Below are positions 2,004-13,651 of a stretch of 64,000 nucleotides of DNA, one piece after another. The stretch is taken from the NCBI RefSeq assembly GCF_013315695.1, contig NZ_CP054353.1. The stretch is one strand, 5' to 3'. Source of the stretch: Escherichia coli. GTDB lineage: Bacteria > Pseudomonadota > Gammaproteobacteria > Enterobacterales > Enterobacteriaceae. The notes beneath the pieces were generated by a model. It made no database searches. It saw only the letters and a list, made by a program, of their open reading frames with translations, and had not been told where the DNA came from. Position 1 is the stretch's first letter. Each line of letters starts with the position of its first letter. A program made the translations under genes and the position numbers.

Positions 2004-2013
2004 AGGAGGAGTA

Positions 2014-2307
2014 ATGGATATAACACCTTTTCTTCATGCGCTTTGTGCTGTGGCTGCGCAGGTAATGATTGGTCTTTTTGCCGGAAACTGGGTTTACGGG
2101 GCGATAGCCGGTTGTACGTTCTTCATTGCGCGTGAACACACCCAGGCAGAATATCGCTGGATTGAAATGTTCGGGCATGGCAAGTGGATTAACATGCCGT
2201 GGTGGGGCGGTTTTGATCCGCGTGTTTGGGATGTGGCAAGCCTGATAGATTTTGCTGTGCCGGTGGTGGCGTGTCTGCTGGTCTGGCTGTTGGTTAATCG
2301 TGGGTGA
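2014..2307 (+). CDS. Hypothetical small membrane protein (97 aa, about 3 predicted TM helices) of prophage origin
   Basis: Hydrophobic segments (LHALCAVAAQVMIGLFAGNWVYGAIAGCTFFIA; FAVPVVACLLVWLLV). Lies directly after the fibre genes. Confidence 0.35.
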   Translation: MDITPFLHALCAVAAQVMIGLFAGNWVYGAIAGCTFFIAREHTQAEYRWIEMFGHGKWINMPWWGGFDPRVWDVASLIDFAVPVVACLLVWLLVNRG

Positions 2308-2317
2308 AAAAAGGTGA

Positions 2318-2446
2318 GCTGTATATGCAACGGAGGAAGAAACCCCGTTGCTGGAAGCCTGGAAAAAGTATCGGGTGTTGCTGAACCGTGTTGATACATC
2401 AACTGCACCTGATATTGAGTGGCCTACGAACCCTGTCAGGGAGTAA
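2318..2446 (+). pseudogene. Tail fibre assembly protein (Tfa) C-terminal fragment
   Basis: Frame translation ...[38 protein letters not shown] matches the conserved Tfa C-terminus. No N-terminal part upstream, and an in-frame stop at 2315-2317. Confidence 0.55.
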
Positions 2447-2500
2447 TCATTGGGATTATGCCGCAGCACGTCTTAAGCAAGAACGTGCTGCGGTTGGATG

Positions 2501-3169
2501 CTATTTTTTCCCTGAAGCGGAAAACATTACTACAGTACCTTGAACCTTGGTTTTAACATTCTCGAAATGCTCTGAGAGTATATGTGTTAAGCCTTCTTCG
2601 GAATCTTTTGTGTTTGAAAAGATGCCTTTCTGATTGTAAATGCGCATCAGTTTTTGACCGAAGCTATTGTGCACAACTCCATCGCCAAGAATTGTGGCTC
2701 CGTATAGAGTTCCATCGTCAGTTAAGGCCTGCGCCGCATTGCGTATTACACAGCTTTTTGTAGATATATTTCCAGGCAGGCAGTGAAGAAGGTAAAACAT
2801 GGAAATGGAATCAAATTGACCATGTAACGCCGCGGGATAAGGTTCAAAAACATCATGGCTAATTTTATGTTTAATTTTTGATTCCCCAGCCCTTGTAGAT
2901 GCCGCGTTCAGGCTAGCTTCGTTCAAATCCATTAAAGATATCAGACTACTCTCAGGTACGTGAGTAAGGTAAAACCCAGTTCCAACACCAATATCCAGAT
3001 GGTTGTTACCTAAATGTTCCAGAAAGTGTGGAAGAAGGTGTTCCTTTGTAGGACATCCCCATGCAAGCCGATTTGATACTCCCAAAACCCACCAGTCATA
3101 AAGCTTTAGGGTAAGTGGTGTGTAAATTTTAGCCCCATCATCTGTGTTTTTTTTCATTAATTTCACCAT
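2501..3169 (-). CDS. ybcY: SAM-dependent methyltransferase (YbcY-like, prophage-borne)
   Basis: 222-aa ORF with class-I methyltransferase motif I (LDIGVGTGFY). Lies between two tfa fragments, as ybcY does in K-12 DLP12. The ORF is intact here. Confidence 0.6.
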   Translation of the reverse strand: MVKLMKKNTDDGAKIYTPLTLKLYDWWVLGVSNRLAWGCPTKEHLLPHFLEHLGNNHLDIGVGTGFYLTHVPESSLISLMDLNEASLNAASTRAGESKIKHKISHDVFEPYPAALHGQFDSISMFYLLHCLPGNISTKSCVIRNAAQALTDDGTLYGATILGDGVVHNSFGQKLMRIYNQKGIFSNTKDSEEGLTHILSEHFENVKTKVQGTVVMFSASGKK

Positions 3170-3225
3170 GTTATAGTTTTATTTGTGAATTAAATCAATT
3201 ATGGCGATGAATTACAAGGGGTTAA

Positions 3226-3524
3226 ATGCTGCCGCAGCATAGCGATATTGAAATAGCCTGGTATGCTTCGATACAGCAGGAGCCGAATGGCTGGAAGACC
3301 GTCACCACACAGTTCTACATCCAGGAATTCAGTGAGTATATTGCGCCACTGCAGGATGCTGGGAAATCGCAACGGAGGAAGAAAGATCGTTGCTGGAGGC
3401 ATGGAATAAATATCGGGTATTGTTGAATCATGTTGATACATCAGTAGCTCTGGGTATGAAGCTGTTTGTAACTCATGTTACAGTAACAGCCATTACTATC
3501 TCGAAGGTGCAAAATGTATATTGA
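3226..3524 (+). pseudogene. tfaX: Tail fibre assembly protein fragment, frameshifted (tfaX-like)
   Basis: ORF 3226-3426 contains Tfa-like ...[10 protein letters not shown]... and then shifts frame. The next frame reads [27 protein letters not shown]... and then diverges from the Tfa consensus. Confidence 0.5.
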
Positions 3525-3651
3525 TTTGATATTTTATAAATTTACTTCGAATCTGGCACGTCAACTTTTGATTAAAGTAATATCAGTTTTCGGCGAAAAA
3601 AGGACCGTGTACATGAGACGATTTCATACAAGAATAACAAAAATATGAATA

Positions 3652-3688
3652 TGCTCCCAATGCAATATATGTTTTGCATTGGGAGCAA
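3652..3688 (-). terminator. Hairpin terminator downstream of the hydrolase gene
   Basis: Perfect 14-bp inverted repeat TGCTCCCAATGCAA-N9-TTGCATTGGGAGCA with A/T-rich flanks, just 3' of the minus-strand CDS ending at 3711. Confidence 0.45.
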
Positions 3689-3710
3689 ATAGCGGAATAT
3701 TTTGAAATTA

Positions 3711-5192
3711 TTATATTTCTGCTTCAGAATTTCCTGGGCAGTATATATTTTCTATTTTTTGTGGAGTGATCAGGTGATGTACAACTGCTTTATCTACACA
3801 TAAATTAACTCCGGTGAGAGCTAATGTATGCCCATCACCATTTATTGTTAGTAACGGGCTGGAAAATTTCTCTGCCATCTTACGGGCATTAATCCAGGGC
3901 GTTGTTGGGTCGTATTTGTGTGCTACAAACAGTAAACCAGAGGGCAGAACAGTATTTTTCAGGCGAGTTTTGTTCAGGTCGCTATGTATTGGCCATAATT
4001 CACAAAAATCAGGTGAATCGGAACGTCCATTGTCAAAGTTAATAGCCGGGAAGGCATTCGCAAGAGCGTCTTTTCGGGATTTTCGCTCTTCTGGTGTTAA
4101 TTGCTCATCCCCCTGATCTACACAGAGGATTACCCCCGAAGCATCGCTTGACTCTTCTGAGGCTATCTGAGCACTGAGCGCAGTTTCAATTTCATTACTG
4201 ACAATCCCCTGAGAGAACTGGCGTATGGCAGTTGCAAGGGTTGGCCATGATGAACGCCATAGCAGAAGGTCTGTTGTTAATGATATGAGTTCATCTGAAG
4301 ATATATTTTCTCCCTTACTGTCTAATAAAGGTTTGTGATGTAATTTTGATAATAGCTCATGGAACTGAGTTATTGCCTTATCTCTGTCTGAAGAAAGCGG
4401 GCAACTTTTTGTACGCGCACACCAGGATGCAAAGCGATCAAACGTTTCCTGATAACTCTGTGCCTGTTTGAGTTGCCATGTGAAGTTGTCCTCCAGGTCA
4501 TCGATATCGACGACTCCATCAAGAACGATAGATCTTACGTTGTAGGGAAAACGTTCTGCATATAAGGCTGCAATTTGAGTTCCATACGAATACGCCACGG
4601 CTGTCAGTTGTTTATCCCCCAAGGCTTGCCTAATACGATCAATATCGTATACAGCCTCGTTAGAGCCGATATGGCGAATGACTTCGGCTCCGGTATTATG
4701 GATACAGGCATTAATTTTATTTAATACTTGTTGCTTTTCGGTTATGTTTTCCTGAGTCTCTGTATCTGATTGCCGGCAGTTTATTGTCGGAGTGGACTGT
4801 CCGACGCCTCGAGGATCAAATCCAATAATATCCCATGACTCACGAAGATTTGTGACTGGCCAGTCAAAGTTAATATAAGGATTTATGCCTGGTAACCCGG
4901 GACCACCACTTATTATCAGGATACTTCCTTTATGCTTGCTTTTTGCCGGCAATTTTGTCAACGCTAGTTTGACTTGTGATTTTTTTTCATAAGAAGCATC
5001 TCCGCCTGTGTCTGTATATTTTAATGGAACAGACAAATAACCACATAGTAAGTCAGGAGACGGTTTTTCCTCACCAAACCAGTGGTTGAATTGACTGGCC
5101 ATACAGGATTGCCACTGTATCTGCTGGGCAGATACGGTTACTGGTAGAAGTAACGTTAAAACAACTTTGAAATGAGTAATTATTTTTCGCAT
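3711..5192 (-). CDS. Secreted alpha/beta-fold hydrolase (peptidase S33 / TAP-like family)
   Basis: 493-aa ORF with N-terminal signal-peptide-like segment (MRKIITHFKVVLTLLLPVTVSAQQ), oxyanion-hole region GFDPRGVGQS and nucleophile elbow AYSYGTQ (GxSxG). Gene is AT-rich and occupies the position of appY in K-12. Confidence 0.7.
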   Translation of the reverse strand: MRKIITHFKVVLTLLLPVTVSAQQIQWQSCMASQFNHWFGEEKPSPDLLCGYLSVPLKYTDTGGDASYEKKSQVKLALTKLPAKSKHKGSILIISGGPGLPGINPYINFDWPVTNLRESWDIIGFDPRGVGQSTPTINCRQSDTETQENITEKQQVLNKINACIHNTGAEVIRHIGSNEAVYDIDRIRQALGDKQLTAVAYSYGTQIAALYAERFPYNVRSIVLDGVVDIDDLEDNFTWQLKQAQSYQETFDRFASWCARTKSCPLSSDRDKAITQFHELLSKLHHKPLLDSKGENISSDELISLTTDLLLWRSSWPTLATAIRQFSQGIVSNEIETALSAQIASEESSDASGVILCVDQGDEQLTPEERKSRKDALANAFPAINFDNGRSDSPDFCELWPIHSDLNKTRLKNTVLPSGLLFVAHKYDPTTPWINARKMAEKFSSPLLTINGDGHTLALTGVNLCVDKAVVHHLITPQKIENIYCPGNSEAEI

Positions 5193-5322
5193 TGTGTCTC
5201 TGAATATCGGAATAAAGATAAGATTTGAATATATTGAGGTCTTGTGTTGCGGTAAGAGATTACACGTTATGACATAGGTTAAATGCTTACAAAATTAGTG
5301 GATATTGTCTACTTGTAACTGT

Positions 5323-5360
5323 AAACAAATTCCCCGGGGTTATACAATACCACCGGGGAG
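5323..5360 (-). terminator. Rho-independent terminator of ompT
   Basis: Hairpin CCCCGG...CCGGGG followed on the minus strand by TTTGTTT, immediately 3' of the ompT stop. Confidence 0.45.
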
Positions 5361-5378
5361 AAAATCTGGTTAACTTCG

Positions 5379-6332
5379 TTAAAAGGTGTACTTAAGACCA
5401 GCAGTAGTGATGAAGTTATAGTTTTCTATGCCTGCACCATTTTTGCTGTAGTCTGAAGTGTTATCATTGTGATCATAAAGTGAAGTATTACCTTTTTTAT
5501 TCGTAACCCGATTCCATGCGCCTTCAACATAAACTTTTGCGTTAGGTGTTACGTAATAACCTGCATTGACTGCAACAGAATAGTAATTTTGGTCTTTGAC
5601 TTTACTGCGATAAGTGATTCTTTTTCCTGGGTCATAGTGCTCATCGTTATCAGATGCTTCCACCCAGCCGCTGTATTTAAATGTGCCACCTAGCTCAAAA
5701 TCTTCATAACGATAACTTCCAGTCAAGCCAATGTAGGGCATTTTAAAACGTTGTTTGTAGCCGATTGCTCTTTCTCCATTCGGGAAGGAGCCGATATCAT
5801 CTCTGAATCCCTCCTCAGAACTGTAGATATAGGAACCACCTCTGGCTGTAAAGCTATAACGGCTTTCCTGATATCCGGCCATGAGTCCCAGGCGGTAATT
5901 GGGTTCGTTGAGGAGCCAGCCTTTGATATTCAGATCAAATTCGTTGGCATAATTGAGTTGTGTATCAGGGTGCCTACTTTCATCTGTCCAGGTTCCGGGG
6001 TTACTGGAATCCATCCAGTCCTGATCGACCATATTGCCACCTCGGCTGCCGAGAGTAGTCCAGCCCGCAGCCCCAATAGATATCTGGGGCATCAAATCCC
6101 AATTAATTGCACCTTTAATAATTGCAGCGTTATTGAATTTCCAGTCGAGTTGACTGACTTTTCGGCCTCCTTCTTCAGCTAGATAAACGCGCTCTTTTGT
6201 TTTTCCGCTCAGAGTTCCAAGACTAATGTCCGCATTTATGTTGTCAGGAGTAAACGATATAGTCTCGGTAGAAGCAAAAGAGCTGATCGCAATAGGGGTT
6301 GTCAGGACTATTCCCAGAAGTTTCGCCCGCAT
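5379..6332 (-). CDS. ompT: Outer membrane protease OmpT (omptin)
   Basis: 317-aa ORF MRAKLLGIVLTTPIAISSFA...AGLKYTF, recognised as OmpT precursor. Confidence 0.95.
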   Translation of the reverse strand: MRAKLLGIVLTTPIAISSFASTETISFTPDNINADISLGTLSGKTKERVYLAEEGGRKVSQLDWKFNNAAIIKGAINWDLMPQISIGAAGWTTLGSRGGNMVDQDWMDSSNPGTWTDESRHPDTQLNYANEFDLNIKGWLLNEPNYRLGLMAGYQESRYSFTARGGSYIYSSEEGFRDDIGSFPNGERAIGYKQRFKMPYIGLTGSYRYEDFELGGTFKYSGWVEASDNDEHYDPGKRITYRSKVKDQNYYSVAVNAGYYVTPNAKVYVEGAWNRVTNKKGNTSLYDHNDNTSDYSKNGAGIENYNFITTAGLKYTF

Positions 6333-6754
6333 AAAAGTTCTCCATTCAATCGTTTTAATGATTGAATATGTATTTTTTATATCTAACTTAATGAGTCAAT
6401 TACATATTGCTCCACTGTTTATATTTTGTTTAGTATTGAATGATTATCACAATGCGCTATCTGTTTTTGGTTTAATTATCTGTTATTGTTTTATGTTGCG
6501 GTTTTACTGTGTGGTTTTTTATGCTTTTGTGGTGTTTTTATCTATTTAAGCGCCATGCCTTTAGAGGCATATAAGCGAAAATAGCATGAGGTTTATCCTC
6601 AATTGCTATGTTTTTTGGTACAAAAAAGAGGGACAAAACTGAGACACATAAGGCCTCACAATGGCTTGCAAGGCTTTACATGTTTTGAGGTAGTGGGACG
6701 TGTGAGCGCAGAGATGGCGCGGTAAGTTGTTGACTTAAAATGTCGTTCTAGGAA

Positions 6755-6799
6755 CTTCTAAGTCGTGGGCCGCAGGTTCGAATCCTGCAGGGCGCGCCA
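6755..6799 (+). other. attR: 45-nt copy of the 3' end of tRNA-Arg(UCU) argU (anticodon loop through CCA), not a full tRNA
   Basis: CTTCTAAGTCGTGGGCCGCAGGTTCGAATCCTGCAGGGCGCGCCA: T-arm GCAGG/TTCGAAT/CCTGC, acceptor 3' strand and CCA present, but no matching 5' half upstream. Confidence 0.7.
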
Positions 6800-6844
6800 T
6801 TTCTTCTTCATTTATCCCCGTCTTATCCGTTTCCGCTTTGCCCT

Positions 6845-7606
6845 TCACCACATCACTTTTTGTCGCTGTTTGGCGAGATAATTCAACGGTGTCAGGCCGT
6901 AAAACGCCTTAAAAACAGAGATAAAGTACGACGTGCTGCTATAGCCACATAATTGCGCTACCTGAGTGATATTTTTGTTATCCATCAATAACATCTGTAC
7001 GGCGTAACGCATACGACACTCTGTGACAATCTGGCTATAGCTGGTATTTTCGTTTTTTAATTTCTTTTTGAGCAGGCTGGGGCTTAAACATAGCGAACTG
7101 GCGACAATTCGCAGATTCCAGTAATGCTGAATATCGCTTTGAATAATGCGGCAGACGCTGTCGCGGACGCTGCTGCGTAAGATATACATCAGTAGGGCAA
7201 TAAACCGCGATTGCTCAAGAAAGTTAGACAATACGGTAAAAAGCAATGCGCGCGTCAACTCCGCTTCGCAGGGTTTGCTGGGTTGCTGCTTGCTGTGGTT
7301 GGCGGCTAGCCGGAACACTTCCGGTGTACGGCTATGACAAGCGATAACCGGGGTTGCCAGCCGCGACCAGGGCTTTATACAGGTTAAGTTCTTATTTAAA
7401 AACAACAGATAATCGTTGATGATGTTACGGTTGATGTGGGTGATTAATACGTGATTTAACGTTGAGAGTTCAATGACGTTATTGTTGCACGCGAAGGCGG
7501 CCAGGTAGTTTTTCGGAAGGGTAAACGTAGCATGGTTATTGACGCTTACCTCTACCTCTTTTTCGGTCAGGATCACCACGCAAGGTTCACTGCTGCTCAA
7601 TTGCAT
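6845..7606 (-). CDS. envY: AraC-family transcriptional regulator EnvY
   Basis: 253-aa ORF with C-terminal AraC HTH region (...ITQVAQLCGYSSTSYFISVFKAFYGLTPLNY...). Confidence 0.85.
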   Translation of the reverse strand: MQLSSSEPCVVILTEKEVEVSVNNHATFTLPKNYLAAFACNNNVIELSTLNHVLITHINRNIINDYLLFLNKNLTCIKPWSRLATPVIACHSRTPEVFRLAANHSKQQPSKPCEAELTRALLFTVLSNFLEQSRFIALLMYILRSSVRDSVCRIIQSDIQHYWNLRIVASSLCLSPSLLKKKLKNENTSYSQIVTECRMRYAVQMLLMDNKNITQVAQLCGYSSTSYFISVFKAFYGLTPLNYLAKQRQKVMW

Positions 7607-8679: not shown

Positions 8680-11652
8680 TTACCAGTGCACTCCAATGGT
8701 GAGAAACGCGTTGTTGCGCTCTCCGTTACGTTGATTAATCGCCTTAAAGGTATGTTGATACTCGACGCCGAGACTGACTTTGTGCGGCCAGGCGTCGTAG
8801 TGCGTCTCGCCGGTCCAGATATTCCAGCGGACCCCGACTCCGCCAAGCTGCGCGCCCTGAGTGCCTTTATCACGATAGCCGTTGTCCTGAACGTGAGCGT
8901 AAGGCTCAATAGTCTGTCCGTTAGCCACCTTCTGATGCCAGCTGACGCGATAATCTGCCGTCCACGCCTGAATATCCTGGCGGACATATTGCGCCGCATC
9001 GAGGTACAGGTTTTGGGCAAACCAGCCTGAACCGTTCGGGTGCCATTCGTCGCTGTATTTGCCGCCATTAAAGAATGAGGCGCTGGCGCGCAGCATGGTA
9101 TCGGATGCGCCATTTTGGCCGTTCAGCGGCAACTGCTGTTCGACGGCGAGGAAAAAGATCTGATCGCGCAGCGGCTTCCAGCGCAGACCGGTGCCGGACA
9201 TCGGATTTTTCACCGGCATCATCACCCCGTTTTCACCGGTATCGGCAAATACACGGCTGTAAACCGAGAGCAGGTCGCCTTCCAGCAGCATATTGCGTCC
9301 GATGCGGTACTCGGCTTCCAGTTGCCCGTAGCTACGATAGCTTTTCCCTGGCGCTGCGCCGCCGACATTATTGTTAGCGGTACTCATTGCGCCGGAACGC
9401 AAGCCGATAGAAGAATCGAAACTGAACGTCCAGCGGCGACCGACCTCCTCATGCAGACGGCGGAAATTGAAGCGTTGCTGATTTTGCTCTGGGGTCAGTG
9501 GGGTTATCAGCGCCTGATTATCAATGTCATCAATCACCAGCCGGGCGTAGTGCTGCGTCGCAGGCATGTCATCCAGACGCTGGTTCACGTAGGCCAGTTG
9601 TCGGATAAGTGCCGGATCGTCCGGTAGCCCTTTATGCGCCTGTTCGAGCATTTTCCGCGACTGTGCGATATCACCGCTATCCCACAAGGCGTAACCGAGC
9701 GCTGCCTGGGTGTTGCTATTATTCGGTTCCAGTTCCAGCGCGGCGCGCAAATCACTCACCGCCGCCGGGACATTATGACGTTGGCGATAAATTGTCGCCC
9801 GCGCAACGTAAGCGTTGGCAGAAGGCGCAATATTGATTGAGCGCGTGAGATCGTTCAGTGCGAGTTCCGGCTGACCAGGAATGTAACGTTGCGCATGCAG
9901 CCACCTGTAGAGGGCATTGTTTCCCAGCCCACGTTGTTCTGCCTGCTGAAGCCAGCGATCGCGAGCCGCACCATTTCCTGCCGCCTGGGCGGTATTGGCA
10001 GCAGCAAGCAGATCCTCATTGCTCATGTCGTGAAGACTGATTTTCTGCCAGGCCGCCAGTGCGGTGGCGTAGTCCTCAACCTGATACGCCTGATAGGCTA
10101 CCGCACGATGTTGCCAGGCGTTCGGTTGTCGTTGTTCGGCCTGAAGCCATGCATACAACGCCACACCGGGTAGCGTGTCCCGATAACACTTTGCCAGACG
10201 GTTCCAGGCGGCGGCATCGTAGGAAGGCGACATATCGCCCAGCAAGCGAACTATTGCCGGGCAATTATCTGCAATACCCGGCAACTGACTTTGCCACTGA
10301 CGTTGCTCCGCCAGCGGTAAGGGTTTCGATAAAATCGCCACCTTCGCCGGCGTTGCCAGGTAAGGATGACTTTCCAGCAGAGACGCCAGTTGCGCCATTA
10401 ACGTCTGGCTGACACGCGCATCGCCCTGGAAAGGATAGCGTTGCAGCAATAAATCGGCAGCTTCGCGTGACTGCTCGTTCTGCATCAGTTGCCAGGTCAG
10501 TTGATCCAGGCGGGTAAGATTTGCCGGTTCTTGCTGATACAGCAATCGTGCCAGACGCAGAGCTTCAGCCTTGTTATGGGTCGCTACGCTAACGGTATAA
10601 CGCTCCTCAAGCATTTCATTGGCGGGGAGGGTGGCGAGCAGTTTTTGCGCTGCGTCGTACTGACCTTCTTTTAACAGCACCGGTAGCGTCGCGCCAACAA
10701 CATACTGGCGGTTATCGGCAAACTGTACCGTATAATTCGCCAACGCCTGAACGGGGTTGACGCTGTATTTAGATAACAGATAGAGCCAACTTTTCTCTTG
10801 TGCGTCCGTGGTAAACAGCGGCTTATTTTCAATGAGATAACGCTGGAGGCGTGCTTTTTCGCCACGATAAGCCAGCGCGGTCGCGTAAGTAATATATGAC
10901 TGCGGATCGGTGAAGATCCCCTGTGATTGCAGCGCCAGGATCCGATCGTCCAGCTGCCCGGCAAGAAGCACATCAAACCACTGGCGGCGTTCTGCCGCGC
11001 TTAATGTGTTCTGCTGGCGTGCTTCATTGTATAGCGTATCTGCCTGGGACCATTGTTTCAGGTAGATTGCGCGTTGCAGCAGATCGGTTCGCAGCGTTTT
11101 TCCTTCCGGCGATGCAGCAAACGTCGCATCGTTTAGTTGCGCTCTGGCGACAGGTAATTGTGCCAGCCGCAGGGCATTCTGCCCGACTTCACTGCGACAA
11201 CGCAGGGTCGGCGCAGCATCGCACGCTTTTTGCTGGGCAAGCAGTTCTTCAACAGTCGTAACGCTTTTCACTTCAACTGGAATAGCCGCCAGACTGCGCT
11301 CAAGCCGGTCATCTCCTGGGTGACGTTTCAGTTGATCCTCAAGCAACAGCCGCGCCCGGTCATCATGACCAAAATGGCGATAGGCTTCCGCAAGGTATAA
11401 AGTTAGTGGAATATTATCCGGCACCTGTTGGTGTATATATTCAAATTCGCGGATGGCGGTTGCTTCGTCGTTATTTTTCTGTGCCTTCAGCGCCTTGTCG
11501 AGACGGGGATAAATAACGAAATGGCGATAATCGCTCAGCCCCAGCTCTTCTGCGCTGGTGCCGATATTGTCTGCGAGTGCGCTGGTACTCAATAAAGACG
11601 TCAGCAGTAAACCAGACCATCCGATGACGCGATTAAGGTTATTCTCCTTCAT
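8680..11652 (-). CDS. nfrA: NfrA, outer-membrane TPR protein required for phage N4 adsorption
   Basis: ORF track begins at a TTG. The recognisable N-terminus MKENNLNRVIGWSGLLL... starts at the ATG at 11652 and gives 990 aa. The C-terminal region is beta-barrel-like. Confidence 0.9.
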   Translation of the reverse strand: MKENNLNRVIGWSGLLLTSLLSTSALADNIGTSAEELGLSDYRHFVIYPRLDKALKAQKNNDEATAIREFEYIHQQVPDNIPLTLYLAEAYRHFGHDDRARLLLEDQLKRHPGDDRLERSLAAIPVEVKSVTTVEELLAQQKACDAAPTLRCRSEVGQNALRLAQLPVARAQLNDATFAASPEGKTLRTDLLQRAIYLKQWSQADTLYNEARQQNTLSAAERRQWFDVLLAGQLDDRILALQSQGIFTDPQSYITYATALAYRGEKARLQRYLIENKPLFTTDAQEKSWLYLLSKYSVNPVQALANYTVQFADNRQYVVGATLPVLLKEGQYDAAQKLLATLPANEMLEERYTVSVATHNKAEALRLARLLYQQEPANLTRLDQLTWQLMQNEQSREAADLLLQRYPFQGDARVSQTLMAQLASLLESHPYLATPAKVAILSKPLPLAEQRQWQSQLPGIADNCPAIVRLLGDMSPSYDAAAWNRLAKCYRDTLPGVALYAWLQAEQRQPNAWQHRAVAYQAYQVEDYATALAAWQKISLHDMSNEDLLAAANTAQAAGNGAARDRWLQQAEQRGLGNNALYRWLHAQRYIPGQPELALNDLTRSINIAPSANAYVARATIYRQRHNVPAAVSDLRAALELEPNNSNTQAALGYALWDSGDIAQSRKMLEQAHKGLPDDPALIRQLAYVNQRLDDMPATQHYARLVIDDIDNQALITPLTPEQNQQRFNFRRLHEEVGRRWTFSFDSSIGLRSGAMSTANNNVGGAAPGKSYRSYGQLEAEYRIGRNMLLEGDLLSVYSRVFADTGENGVMMPVKNPMSGTGLRWKPLRDQIFFLAVEQQLPLNGQNGASDTMLRASASFFNGGKYSDEWHPNGSGWFAQNLYLDAAQYVRQDIQAWTADYRVSWHQKVANGQTIEPYAHVQDNGYRDKGTQGAQLGGVGVRWNIWTGETHYDAWPHKVSLGVEYQHTFKAINQRNGERNNAFLTIGVHW

Positions 11653-13651
11653 TTTCGGACTCCAGTTGCGCAACCTGTTCTGTGTTTAAACCTGCTTTGA
11701 GTAATAGTGATTGCATCGAAACTTGTAATTCGCGTTGAATTGTCAGGACGCGATCCAACGTTTCCTGGCTGATAACGCCTTCGGTGACCAAAAACTTGCC
11801 GAGCGGCAGAGAACTGCGTTCATGGCGCAATAACAACACGTTAATTGCTGAACGATTAATATGACCGAGCGTGGTCAGTATTTCGGCGAACAGGAACTGA
11901 TGCGGCACATATTGCCGCCAGATTTCACCGGCCTGCTGTTCCGTGAGCCACTGATGCTGAACTGCATTGTACAACATTGCCCGCGGATCGTGACCGCGTC
12001 GGCGTGCATACCAGTGGCGTAATCCGGTGACAATTTGTCCCCGCAGAACAATGACGTAACGCACTTTGCGTCCGACTTTACGCGTCAGGGCCGCCAGCGA
12101 AACCGGGTCAATACCATCTTCACTGCCGACAATTAACTCATCATTGTCCAGACGCAGCGGCAGTACCGCATAATGCAGCGCCACGGAGGCCGGCATTTCG
12201 GCAATCAGCGAGGAAGGGATCTGCCAGGCATCGATGGATTCCCACGCCACTCGACGCGGATCGCCGTGTTGAAGTACCTGTTTTAACGCGCGCCAGTTGG
12301 CCATGAAGTTAATCAGGTTACCCCAGAAAAGACGCAGGACAGATAGCAGCCCCTGCGTCAGACCGTAGTAGCCAGTGACAAAAATCACCCGCTGCACGAT
12401 GCGGTTAACCATCAAACCAAAGTTTAGCCACAGCAGGGTCATTAACCATGCGCTGCCGCTGAAAATAGAAAGGAAATGCCAGGCATCGGGCCACAAACTT
12501 TCATACGCCAGTAACAGCAAAAGCTGGATCATCACCAGCATCGCGAGGAAGCTGACAAAGTTACTGATTGCCCCTTTGCGGTCGCGCCAGAGAAAGTAGT
12601 TCAGCGTCAGGCTGGAGGTCCATTTGTGGGTTTTAAAGCCCTGGAAAACAATGCCGATGATCCAGCGAGATTTTTGTCGAACCGCAGTCGAAAAGGTATC
12701 GGGGAAATATTCGCGCACGCAGATCATGTTTGACGTCCGTGCGTGCTGTAAAAATTTACGCTGCTCGCGTTCTTTGGCTTCGTCCACCACCGGAAAACGG
12801 ACAAAAATTTCCGTCATACCTTTTTCTTTCAGGCGGAAGCCAATATCGTAATCTTCAGTCAGACTCTGCACGTCGAAAGCAATACCGTCACCGTCAGCTA
12901 ACAGAGCGGTCACGGCGCGGCGGCTGAAACAGGTGCCGACGCCTGCGCTGGGCACTTGTCCGGCGAGGGCTTCACGCACCGGAACATCCTTGCCATGCAG
13001 TTCTGAAAACTCATCAATGTAAGTCATGCTGGTGAAGTGCGTCCATTCGCGTTCGAACGGATACACTGGGATCTGAATCAGATCTTTACGCTCGACCAGA
13101 TAGTTGAACAGACGCAATTCCATCGGTGAAATCACATCTTCGGCGTCATGCAGAATAAAACCAGCAAAAGCGAAATTGGCGCTACGTTCAAATTGGGTGA
13201 TGGCGTCCAGCACGTTGTTCAGACAGTCGGCTTTGCTGGTGGGGCCAGGACGCGCGCAGACTACCTTATGCACGTTCGGGAAGCGAGCGCACACTTCGTC
13301 AACATCACGCTGAGTATCGGGGTCGTTGGGGTAGGTGCCAACAAAGATATGATAGTTTTCGTAGTCGAGCGTGGTCGCCGCCAGCTCGGCCATATTGCCG
13401 ATGACGCCCGTTTCATTCCACGCCGGAACCATAATCGCTAACGGTTTTTCATCTGGTTTATACAGTTCGCGGTAACTCATTCGCGGGTAGCGGCGATAAA
13501 CACTCAACTTGCGTTTAATGCGGCGTACCCAGTAGACGACATCAATAAAAAAATCGTCCAGCCCGCTGATGAACATGATGACCGCTAACGTTATCGCGAT
13601 TACTTTTAAGCCGTAGAGCCAGGTAGCAAAAACATCAAGAAGCCAGTCCAC
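11639..13651 (-). CDS. nfrB: NfrB, inner-membrane family-2 glycosyltransferase with C-terminal MshEN-like c-di-GMP-binding region
   Basis: 670-aa ORF from a GTG start, with an in-frame stop 3 codons upstream. GT2 region (..AWNETGVIGNMAEL..DAED..) and C-terminal LPLGKFLVTEGVISQETLDRVLTIQ motif. Overlaps the nfrA start by 14 nt. Confidence 0.85.
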   Translation of the reverse strand: MDWLLDVFATWLYGLKVIAITLAVIMFISGLDDFFIDVVYWVRRIKRKLSVYRRYPRMSYRELYKPDEKPLAIMVPAWNETGVIGNMAELAATTLDYENYHIFVGTYPNDPDTQRDVDEVCARFPNVHKVVCARPGPTSKADCLNNVLDAITQFERSANFAFAGFILHDAEDVISPMELRLFNYLVERKDLIQIPVYPFEREWTHFTSMTYIDEFSELHGKDVPVREALAGQVPSAGVGTCFSRRAVTALLADGDGIAFDVQSLTEDYDIGFRLKEKGMTEIFVRFPVVDEAKEREQRKFLQHARTSNMICVREYFPDTFSTAVRQKSRWIIGIVFQGFKTHKWTSSLTLNYFLWRDRKGAISNFVSFLAMLVMIQLLLLLAYESLWPDAWHFLSIFSGSAWLMTLLWLNFGLMVNRIVQRVIFVTGYYGLTQGLLSVLRLFWGNLINFMANWRALKQVLQHGDPRRVAWESIDAWQIPSSLIAEMPASVALHYAVLPLRLDNDELIVGSEDGIDPVSLAALTRKVGRKVRYVIVLRGQIVTGLRHWYARRRGHDPRAMLYNAVQHQWLTEQQAGEIWRQYVPHQFLFAEILTTLGHINRSAINVLLLRHERSSLPLGKFLVTEGVISQETLDRVLTIQRELQVSMQSLLLKAGLNTEQVAQLESENEGE

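Follow-up and report, generated by a model that had tools for sequence, protein, structure and literature searches.

A Hip1-like alpha/beta hydrolase gene next to ompT on an Escherichia coli prophage arm

Hip1, a protease by which Mycobacterium tuberculosis evades immunity, is a target for drugs against tuberculosis, and the tripeptidyl peptidases (TPPs) of Streptomyces are the source of the Pfam family PF08386, 'TAP-like'. OmpT, the omptin of Escherichia coli, has been studied intensively for its part in virulence and peptide resistance and is a familiar nuisance when proteins are produced; most work on it was done in K-12, BL21 or strains in which the neighbouring gene was ignored. Here we analyse that neighbour in a stretch of 64,000 nucleotides of E. 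coli DNA (contig NZ_CP054353.1, assembly GCF_013315695.1; the whole stretch is called the window), where a 493-residue protein is encoded directly downstream of ompT. By its fold and active site it is almost certainly a Hip1/TAP-like alpha/beta hydrolase of the MEROPS S33 type. The family itself is already known and the gene has been annotated automatically in about 1250 complete genomes; apparently new are the pairing of omptin and hydrolase as a conserved cassette and the kinship of the E. coli and F-plasmid genes with Hip1. No study of the omptin-hydrolase pairing or of the Hip1 link was found in the searchable literature, outside which most subscription journals lie.

Hip1 is a serine-dependent protease acting on azocasein, peptides and GroEL2, has esterase activity on p-nitrophenyl butyrate, contains 11 cysteines with five predicted disulfides, and is reported to be 30-38% identical to the Streptomyces enzymes TPP A/B/C (PMC4022732). 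Its oxyanion hole is formed by Gly110 and Tyr229 (PMC13041806).

Fold, active site and predicted export of the hydrolase

The features of the gene are as follows.

3711..5192, minus strand: hydrolase coding sequence, a 493-residue open reading frame with PF00561 and PF08386 matches, Hip1 homology and an AlphaFold2 model
5130..5192, minus strand: predicted signal peptide, residues 1-21, with a signal peptidase I cut after VSA, from sequence features and a conserved junction
4896..4907, minus strand: GGPG motif, Gly96-Gly99, with Gly97 as predicted oxyanion-hole residue, from invariance and Hip1 alignment
4587..4589, minus strand: codon of the Ser202 nucleophile (A-Y-S-Y-G), from invariance and alignment with Hip1 Ser228
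3909..3911, minus strand: codon of the catalytic acid Asp428 (YDPTTP), from invariance and alignment with Hip1 Asp463
3828..3830, minus strand: codon of the catalytic base His455 (GDGHTL), from invariance and alignment with Hip1 His490

Profile and structure comparisons lead to the same family. In Pfam the protein matches Abhydrolase_1 (PF00561; residues 91-460, E-value 5e-33) and, towards its C-terminal end, the TAP-like domain Abhydrolase_4 (PF08386; residues 386-479, 6e-14), both of them hydrolase families. A sequence search of the PDB returns as top matches four deposited forms of M. tuberculosis Hip1 (2.4e-51 over residues 21-475, with 32% identity at 436 aligned positions), and with a profile of 40 family members the Hip1 match reaches 1e-151. 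The AlphaFold2 model built on the family alignment has a mean predicted local distance difference test score of 88.4 and a predicted template modelling (TM) score of 0.89; it shows alternating strands and helices, with a helical lid (230-410) between the strands at 219-225 and 420-427. When this model is searched with Foldseek, Hip1 structures take the top six places (TM-score 0.74-0.82), followed by TnmK1 and TnmK2 (0.75-0.82; sequence matches at 2.5e-18 and 1.3e-8), with prolyl aminopeptidases far behind.

Conservation was read from 40 homologues, 27-82% identical to the query, from Enterobacterales, Pseudomonas, Acinetobacter, Chromobacterium, Nocardia and Mycobacterium. All three members of the triad, Ser202, Asp428 and His455, are present and invariant in this set, as are G97, P98 and G99 and, within GFDPRG, P127, R128 and G129; each of the ten cysteines is kept in all or in at least 90% of the homologues. 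In the alignment with Hip1, S202 corresponds to S228, D428 to D463 and H455 to H490, while the GGPG motif at 96-99 corresponds to Gly109-Gly112, G97 to G110 and Y203 to Y229. Nine of the ten hydrolase cysteines align with Hip1 cysteines, and the Hip1 pocket residues V254, Q267 and T466 are retained.

The preliminary description of this DNA had read AYSYGTQ (residues 200-206) as a GxSxG nucleophile motif and GFDPRGVGQS (residues 124-133) as the oxyanion-hole region. Ser202 indeed occupies the place of Hip1 Ser228, but the motif around it is an AxSxG variant. GFDPRGVGQS is present and conserved, but the oxyanion label was put on the wrong motif, because Hip1 crystal structures define the hole by the GGPG glycine together with the tyrosine, and homology therefore puts it at Gly97 and Tyr203. 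The same description had likened the protein to prolyl/tripeptidyl aminopeptidases. This stands insofar as the enzyme is of the S33 type with Hip1 as its best solved relative, but it is not a prolyl aminopeptidase equivalog: the NCBIfam model TIGR01249 gives 35.8 bits against a cut-off of 259.75, over residues 167-263 only, and TIGR01250 is also far below threshold. With these hits sub-threshold, the hydrolase is no proline iminopeptidase.

The N-terminus carries the signal peptide first described for it. It reads MRKIITHFKVVLTLLLPVTVSA, followed after the predicted cut by QQ, and combines a basic n-region (three basic residues) and a hydrophobic core of 11 residues with V-S-A ahead of the cut, which gives V-x-A at -3/-1. 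There is no lipobox in the N-terminus, the first cysteine being residue 30, and homology to mature Hip1 begins at residue 21. Seven of seven diverged copies, described below, keep the junction (T)VSA-(Q/R)(Q/R)-I-(E/Q)-W after a hydrophobic leader, and in a DNA alignment the start ATG with its upstream (G)GAG is likewise conserved in seven of seven. Because the leader and the Shine-Dalgarno (SD) sequence with its ATG are conserved across these copies, we prefer the start at 5192; the shorter start used in the record of phage 2G7b and in the PHROG profile would delete the leader. Given a Sec/signal peptidase I signal in E. coli, the destination of the enzyme would be the periplasm, and the ten conserved cysteines would fit an oxidising compartment. 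Its earlier description as secreted is thus borne out as to the signal, but nothing found supports release to the medium. A review statement that places Z1931 in supernatants of enterohaemorrhagic E. coli was considered as a lead for such release and dropped; Z1931 is presumably ompT rather than the hydrolase.

The reading frame itself is intact. The six-frame list of open reading frames has a single long frame at 3711..5192 on the minus strand, exactly 493 residues long as previously given and beginning MRKIITHFKVVLTLLLPVTVSAQQIQWQSC, with no competing long frame in that list overlapping it. The RefSeq protein, WP_001571067.1, is annotated 'alpha/beta hydrolase'. E. coli blood isolate AF3 (NZ_OZ547117.1) matches the window at 100% across the gene, and here an 'alpha/beta hydrolase' stands between tail-fibre remnants and ompT, envY, ybcH and nfrA. 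At 42.2% guanine plus cytosine (GC), below the 52-58% of the chromosomal backbone from ybcH onward, the gene is compositionally foreign; 'strongly AT-rich', as it had been called, is overstated, because its GC equals that of ompT (43.6%). Overall, the gene and its first interpretation are supported, with minor corrections.

The omptin-hydrolase cassette and its prophage locus

The features around the gene are the following.

5379..6332, minus strand: ompT, the omptin outer-membrane protease and upstream partner, from open reading frame and annotation
5193..5378, minus strand: ompT-hydrolase spacer, 186 bp, with SD-like AGAG(A) at 5197-5201, from the seven-cassette alignment
5331..5359, minus strand: conserved GC-rich hairpin just past the ompT stop (-19.8 kcal/mol, z = -2.6, short U-rich tail)
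3652..3687, minus strand: terminator-like hairpin downstream of the hydrolase, with a perfect stem of 14 bp, a loop of 8 nt and a U-rich tail (z = -5.7)
6372..6399, minus strand: promoter-like site upstream of ompT (TTGACT, 16 nt, AAAAAT), from a consensus scan only
3449..5328, no strand assigned: segment differing from K-12, which has an appY-bearing segment there instead, from BLASTN against MG1655 and the MG1655 annotation
6705..6801, plus strand: tRNA-like fragment at 6705-6788 and end of homology to phage 2G7b, probable right attachment site (attR); Rfam tRNA score 24.8 bits, below the gathering score of 29

Among 5426 complete E. coli genomes ompT is found in 3094 and the hydrolase in 1253 by any match, or 1229 at a coverage of at least 80%; in 1220 the hydrolase and ompT lie in one contiguous match, and 852 have the K-12 appY segment. 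About 40% of the ompT-positive genomes, O157:H7 among them, carry the hydrolase directly downstream. Seven diverged cassettes, spread over phages, plasmids and chromosomes, have the omptin followed by the hydrolase in the same order and on the same strand. They sit in chromosomal prophages, O157 Sp8, lambdoid phages, beside ompP on the F plasmid and on a plasmid with the iro salmochelin locus, and three more contexts come from contigs of plasmid-like or metagenomic origin, where fimbrial, afa or autotransporter genes lie nearby. Across the seven, identity ranges from 71 to 99% for the omptin and from 76 to 99% for the hydrolase, and the two values rise and fall together (r = 0.94 over 21 pairs, which are not independent). 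For well-diverged pairs, with synonymous divergence (dS) at about 0.6-1.1, the ratio of non-synonymous to synonymous divergence (dN/dS) is 0.11-0.19 for the hydrolase and 0.06-0.13 for the omptin. Given these ratios and the matched divergence, both genes have been under purifying selection and have been together since before the OmpT/OmpP split. The earlier suggestion of a two-enzyme cargo is strengthened by this persistence. Among the homologues whose neighbours were compared, the omptin pairing is confined to a hydrolase clade of at least 76% identity, and the wider family is itinerant cargo of Enterobacterales. One Salmonella enterica homologue (53% identical) is cargo beside Tn7-like genes (TniQ, TniB, a Mu-type transposase), with a gene for a serralysin-type metalloprotease a few kb off.

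The transcription signals of the cassette are in part conserved as well. A hairpin with a 14-bp perfect stem, followed by a U-rich stretch, begins 24 nt past the hydrolase stop and confirms the perfect-palindrome terminator reported earlier; its folding energy within 78 nt of sequence is -24.4 kcal/mol, compared with -10.0 +/- 2.5 for shuffled sequences, none of 200 shuffles being as stable. An Rfam scan of 2300-7000 gave nothing relevant to the hydrolase, the terminator itself yielding a spurious sub-threshold mir-450 match. The hairpin after the omptin, conserved in seven of seven cassettes and in K-12, is a weak to modest terminator or a possible read-through point. Spacers are 92-188 bp long over the seven cassettes, and in the window type the stretch from hairpin to SD-ATG is enlarged by about 72 bases. 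A consensus scan of the coding strand of the spacer, 5193..5378, found no sigma-70-like promoter. Since the hairpin is weak, no spacer promoter was found and a promoter-like site lies upstream of ompT, these signals suggest partial read-through into the hydrolase from the omptin promoter. In O157 Sakai microarrays at entry into stationary phase, ECs1662, the hydrolase gene, changes by -2.53 log2 and ompT by -2.72 log2 (PMC2241611), which shows that the hydrolase is transcribed in growing O157 lysogens.

In the window, homology to K-12 MG1655 by sensitive BLASTN runs through ybcY and tfaX to about 3448 and resumes at about 5329, just past the hairpin after the ompT stop. The segment between them is about 1.6 kb long in K-12, where it carries appY, and about 1.9 kb long in the window, where it carries the hydrolase gene, so the breaks and the MG1655 annotation bear out that the hydrolase takes the place of appY. 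A third, 'empty' allele (sequence type 131, Nissle 1917, Ecol_AZ161) has neither gene, and its methyltransferase gene adjoins ompT. In phylogroup B2 this allele is without 3253-5222 and keeps 5223-5378 (156 bp), that is, the spacer up to 30 nt before the hydrolase start; it reads as a deletion of the hydrolase. TBLASTN found no hydrolase remnant in the K-12 or B2 allele, only the spacer or the hairpin, which K-12 keeps after ompT, being left. Because the pair predates the OmpT/OmpP split, B2 keeps the spacer and K-12 keeps the hairpin, the hydrolase-bearing arrangement is most likely the ancestral one at this prophage arm, with appY as a replacement and the B2 allele as a deletion; this order is drawn from sequence relationships, not from a dated tree.

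The cassette lies inside the prophage near its probable right end. Positions 2013-6801 match phage 2G7b at 99.5% and homology ends at 6801 beside the tRNA-like fragment, so 6705-6801 is the probable attR and envY would lie outside the prophage. In 2G7b the pair is found between the tail-fibre genes and the integrase, which follows ompT (the lambdoid b region), and lom-type conversion genes adjoin it. The pair is at least 99% identical in 11 deposited Escherichia phage genomes, including 2G7b, ev243, Turner and the PhiR series. In O157:H7 it is in another prophage, Sp8 near minCDE, as ECs1662 ('hydrolase') and ECs1663 (ompT), and there an ISEc8 element (IS66 family) has inserted shortly after the hydrolase terminator, at what corresponds to 3442-3450 of the window.

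Several further observations concern the neighbourhood. The tail-fibre region at 1-2012 is mosaic relative to 2G7b, only 928-1342 matching, at 92%. A class I S-adenosylmethionine-dependent methyltransferase gene (2501-3169, minus strand, 222 residues) is intact in the window and the phages, while its K-12 counterpart ybcY is a pseudogene; PHROGs lists it as of unknown function and its PADLOC match to mad2 is negligible (E-value 0.003). Rfam gives sub-threshold IS009 matches on the plus strand at 3249-3445 and 2300-2403 (79.5 and 69 bits, where the gathering score is 117); the two stretches overlie fragments of tail-fibre-assembly genes and are about 85% similar to each other. Ecol_AZ161, which has the third allele (at 5760-6010 in the numbering of its own locus), is also without envY. 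Further along, nfrB (11639-13651, minus strand) encodes 670 residues against 745 in the NfrB of Ecol_AZ161, owing to an in-frame deletion of 75 residues that follows residue 467 and lies between 'RRVAW' and 'NGVAW' repeats of the C-terminal part; in AF3 it is annotated only as 'glycosyl transferase family protein'.

Proposed function and its alternatives

We consider it probable that the hydrolase is a serine peptidase of the Hip1/TAP type which resides, disulfide-bonded, in the periplasm and whose gene is carried and partly co-transcribed with ompT. At least some of its transcription would come from the ompT promoter by read-through of the weak hairpin, ending at its own strong terminator, and the product would be exported by Sec, cleaved after Ala21, oxidised by the Dsb system to five disulfides and put to work in the periplasm or cell envelope. 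Its activity could be that of an endopeptidase or a tripeptidyl-type peptidase, as in Hip1 and the Streptomyces TPPs, with esterase activity on the side; a peptidase is somewhat favoured over an esterase. At its most speculative, the proposal is that the hydrolase may break down in the periplasm peptide fragments that OmpT makes at the surface, from antimicrobial peptides, colicins or host proteins, the pair forming a two-compartment proteolytic cargo module. A functional coupling of this kind between hydrolase and omptin is doubtful, and the fuller version, an ancient, mobile, co-transcribed two-compartment module spread by phages and plasmids for the protection of host and element, is unlikely; its protection may then cover cationic antimicrobial peptides, colicins and incoming phage proteins. 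By analogy with Hip1, the hydrolase might instead modulate host immunity.

Several points weigh against a peptidase that belongs with the omptin. Four Hip1 pocket residues are changed (R232 to Q206, K469 to I434, Y342 to L311 and E113 to L100), and because several specificity-pocket residues differ, the substrate preference of Hip1 is not transferable; the same fold family also includes the non-protease enzymes TnmK1 and TnmK2. The periplasmic location is predicted from sequence features alone. No published biochemical or genetic work on the hydrolase or its close relatives was found, and ECs1662 figures in one paper as a passing sequence similarity with no functional content (PMC4606577). About 60% of the ompT-positive genomes are without the hydrolase. 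No omptin stands beside homologues of about 45-54% identity in the six that were checked (Salmonella P0015, Serratia P0017 on a plasmid, Budvicia P0012 on a chromosome, Pantoea P0024, and contigs P0010 and P0011), and no hydrolase stands beside ColV ompTp, IcsP or Pla, where matches cover the omptin only. Since distant homologues stand alone, the enzyme needs no omptin in general. As to transcription, the roughly 72 extra bases of the window-type spacer leave room for a promoter that departs from the consensus. Co-expression in Sakai is a weak sign of co-regulation; both genes fall into the largest cluster, of 1078 open reading frames (PMC2241611).

The linkage may be no more than historical hitch-hiking, a single capture on a mobile element of two genes with independent functions, and this account is plausible without being probable. 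Distant homologues travel alone on transposons and plasmids, many omptins have no hydrolase, in two common E. coli alleles the hydrolase is lost but ompT kept, and a hairpin separates the two genes. Yet the pair has outlasted divergence to a dS of about 1 or more and has survived transfers among phage, F-type plasmid, other plasmids and chromosome; its order, strand, hairpin and SD-ATG are constant while the flanks vary by context, and in three cassettes the spacer is just 92-128 bp.

Rather improbable is a carboxylesterase, a lipase or a lactone or small-ester hydrolase acting on envelope lipids or small molecules. A Ser-Asp-His triad in an alpha/beta fold is common to esterases and lipases, several peptide-pocket residues of Hip1 are not conserved, and Hip1 itself, first deposited as 'Carboxylesterase A', hydrolyses p-nitrophenyl butyrate (PMC4022732). 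Names point the same way, one phage record having 'putative lactone hydrolase' and several sources labelling homologues 'pimeloyl-ACP methyl ester carboxylesterase', but these labels are automatic. The nearest relatives that have been characterised are peptidases (Hip1 and Streptomyces TPP A/B/C), prolyl aminopeptidases come next in NCBIfam and the PDB, and the constant partner gene encodes a protease.

Less probable still is an exclusion or defence factor of phage or plasmid, a periplasmic protease directed against proteins of phages, colicins or conjugation partners. It draws on the position of the gene, in the lambdoid b region (tail fibres to attachment site and integrase) near lom-type genes and also on the F plasmid, and on a full-length match to the PADLOC model PDLC01094 (C3a206, 'TAP-like protein'; E-value 2.7e-56). 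That match, however, is to a single hidden Markov model and not to a system, and the model is a relative about as distant as Hip1; OmpT has no PADLOC match and the neighbouring genes no significant one, PHROGs lists both the hydrolase and OmpT as of unknown function, and defence genes are not a consistent feature next to the distant homologues. A non-hydrolytic or biosynthetic enzyme like TnmK1/TnmK2, the next structural neighbours by the scores given above, is very hard to credit, as Hip1 is much closer (2.4e-51), the signal peptide and conserved cysteines are those of an exported enzyme, and there is no biosynthetic gene cluster around the hydrolase in the contexts of the window relative, the F plasmid or 2G7b.

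If the hydrolase does act with OmpT, a periplasmic step would be added to omptin-mediated resistance, which could account for strain differences in OmpT phenotypes. Were the two genes truly one module, the hydrolase would count as naturally knocked out in K-12 and B2 strains, and the OmpT phenotypes described in them would be incomplete. Regardless of any coupling to OmpT, the annotation of about 1250 complete genomes is upgraded, along with that of several genes of phages and plasmids whose present label is 'hypothetical' or 'alpha/beta hydrolase', and the work bears on which allele at the right arm of DLP12 is ancestral.

Likeness to known systems

Streptomyces lividans Tap, SlpD and SlpE (TPP A/B/C; MEROPS S33) have PF08386 and PF00561 in common with the hydrolase and are likened to it via Hip1 and Pfam. 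Prolyl aminopeptidases are cytoplasmic enzymes of about 315 residues; those of known structure (PDB 1QTR, 1AZW) have the superfamily and the nucleophile region (167-263) in common with the hydrolase, but a smaller cap, and their TM-scores against it are 0.35 and 0.52.

As to gene arrangement, the closest counterpart is the neighbour of ompP on the F plasmid (WP_072145210.1, 'alpha/beta hydrolase'), a homologous cassette in which the hydrolase is 77% and the omptin 71% identical. It differs from that of the window in lying on a plasmid rather than in a prophage and in its shorter spacer of 104 bp. The gene also resembles the lambdoid b-region conversion genes (lom, bor, 'morons'): like them it is found between tail-fibre genes and the attachment site and integrase, and a strong terminator follows it and a transcript is detected in the growing O157 Sakai lysogen. 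Unlike them it belongs to a two-gene unit that also occurs on plasmids.

Among characterised enzymes the likeness to Hip1 (Rv2224c, CaeA; PDB 5UGQ, 7SFM, 9MD7) is closest. On the one hand, homology is full-length, with the same fold and helical lid at a TM-score of about 0.8, and the two are alike in the triad, in an oxyanion hole of GGPG plus tyrosine, in nine aligned cysteines and in export to the cell envelope, which for the hydrolase is predicted. On the other hand, the first glycine of GxSxG is alanine in the hydrolase, the four pocket residues listed above are changed, and cleavage of GroEL2 is described for Hip1. The host of the hydrolase is Gram-negative, so that its target compartment would be the periplasm, and, unlike Hip1, the hydrolase is the cargo of mobile elements, linked to an omptin.

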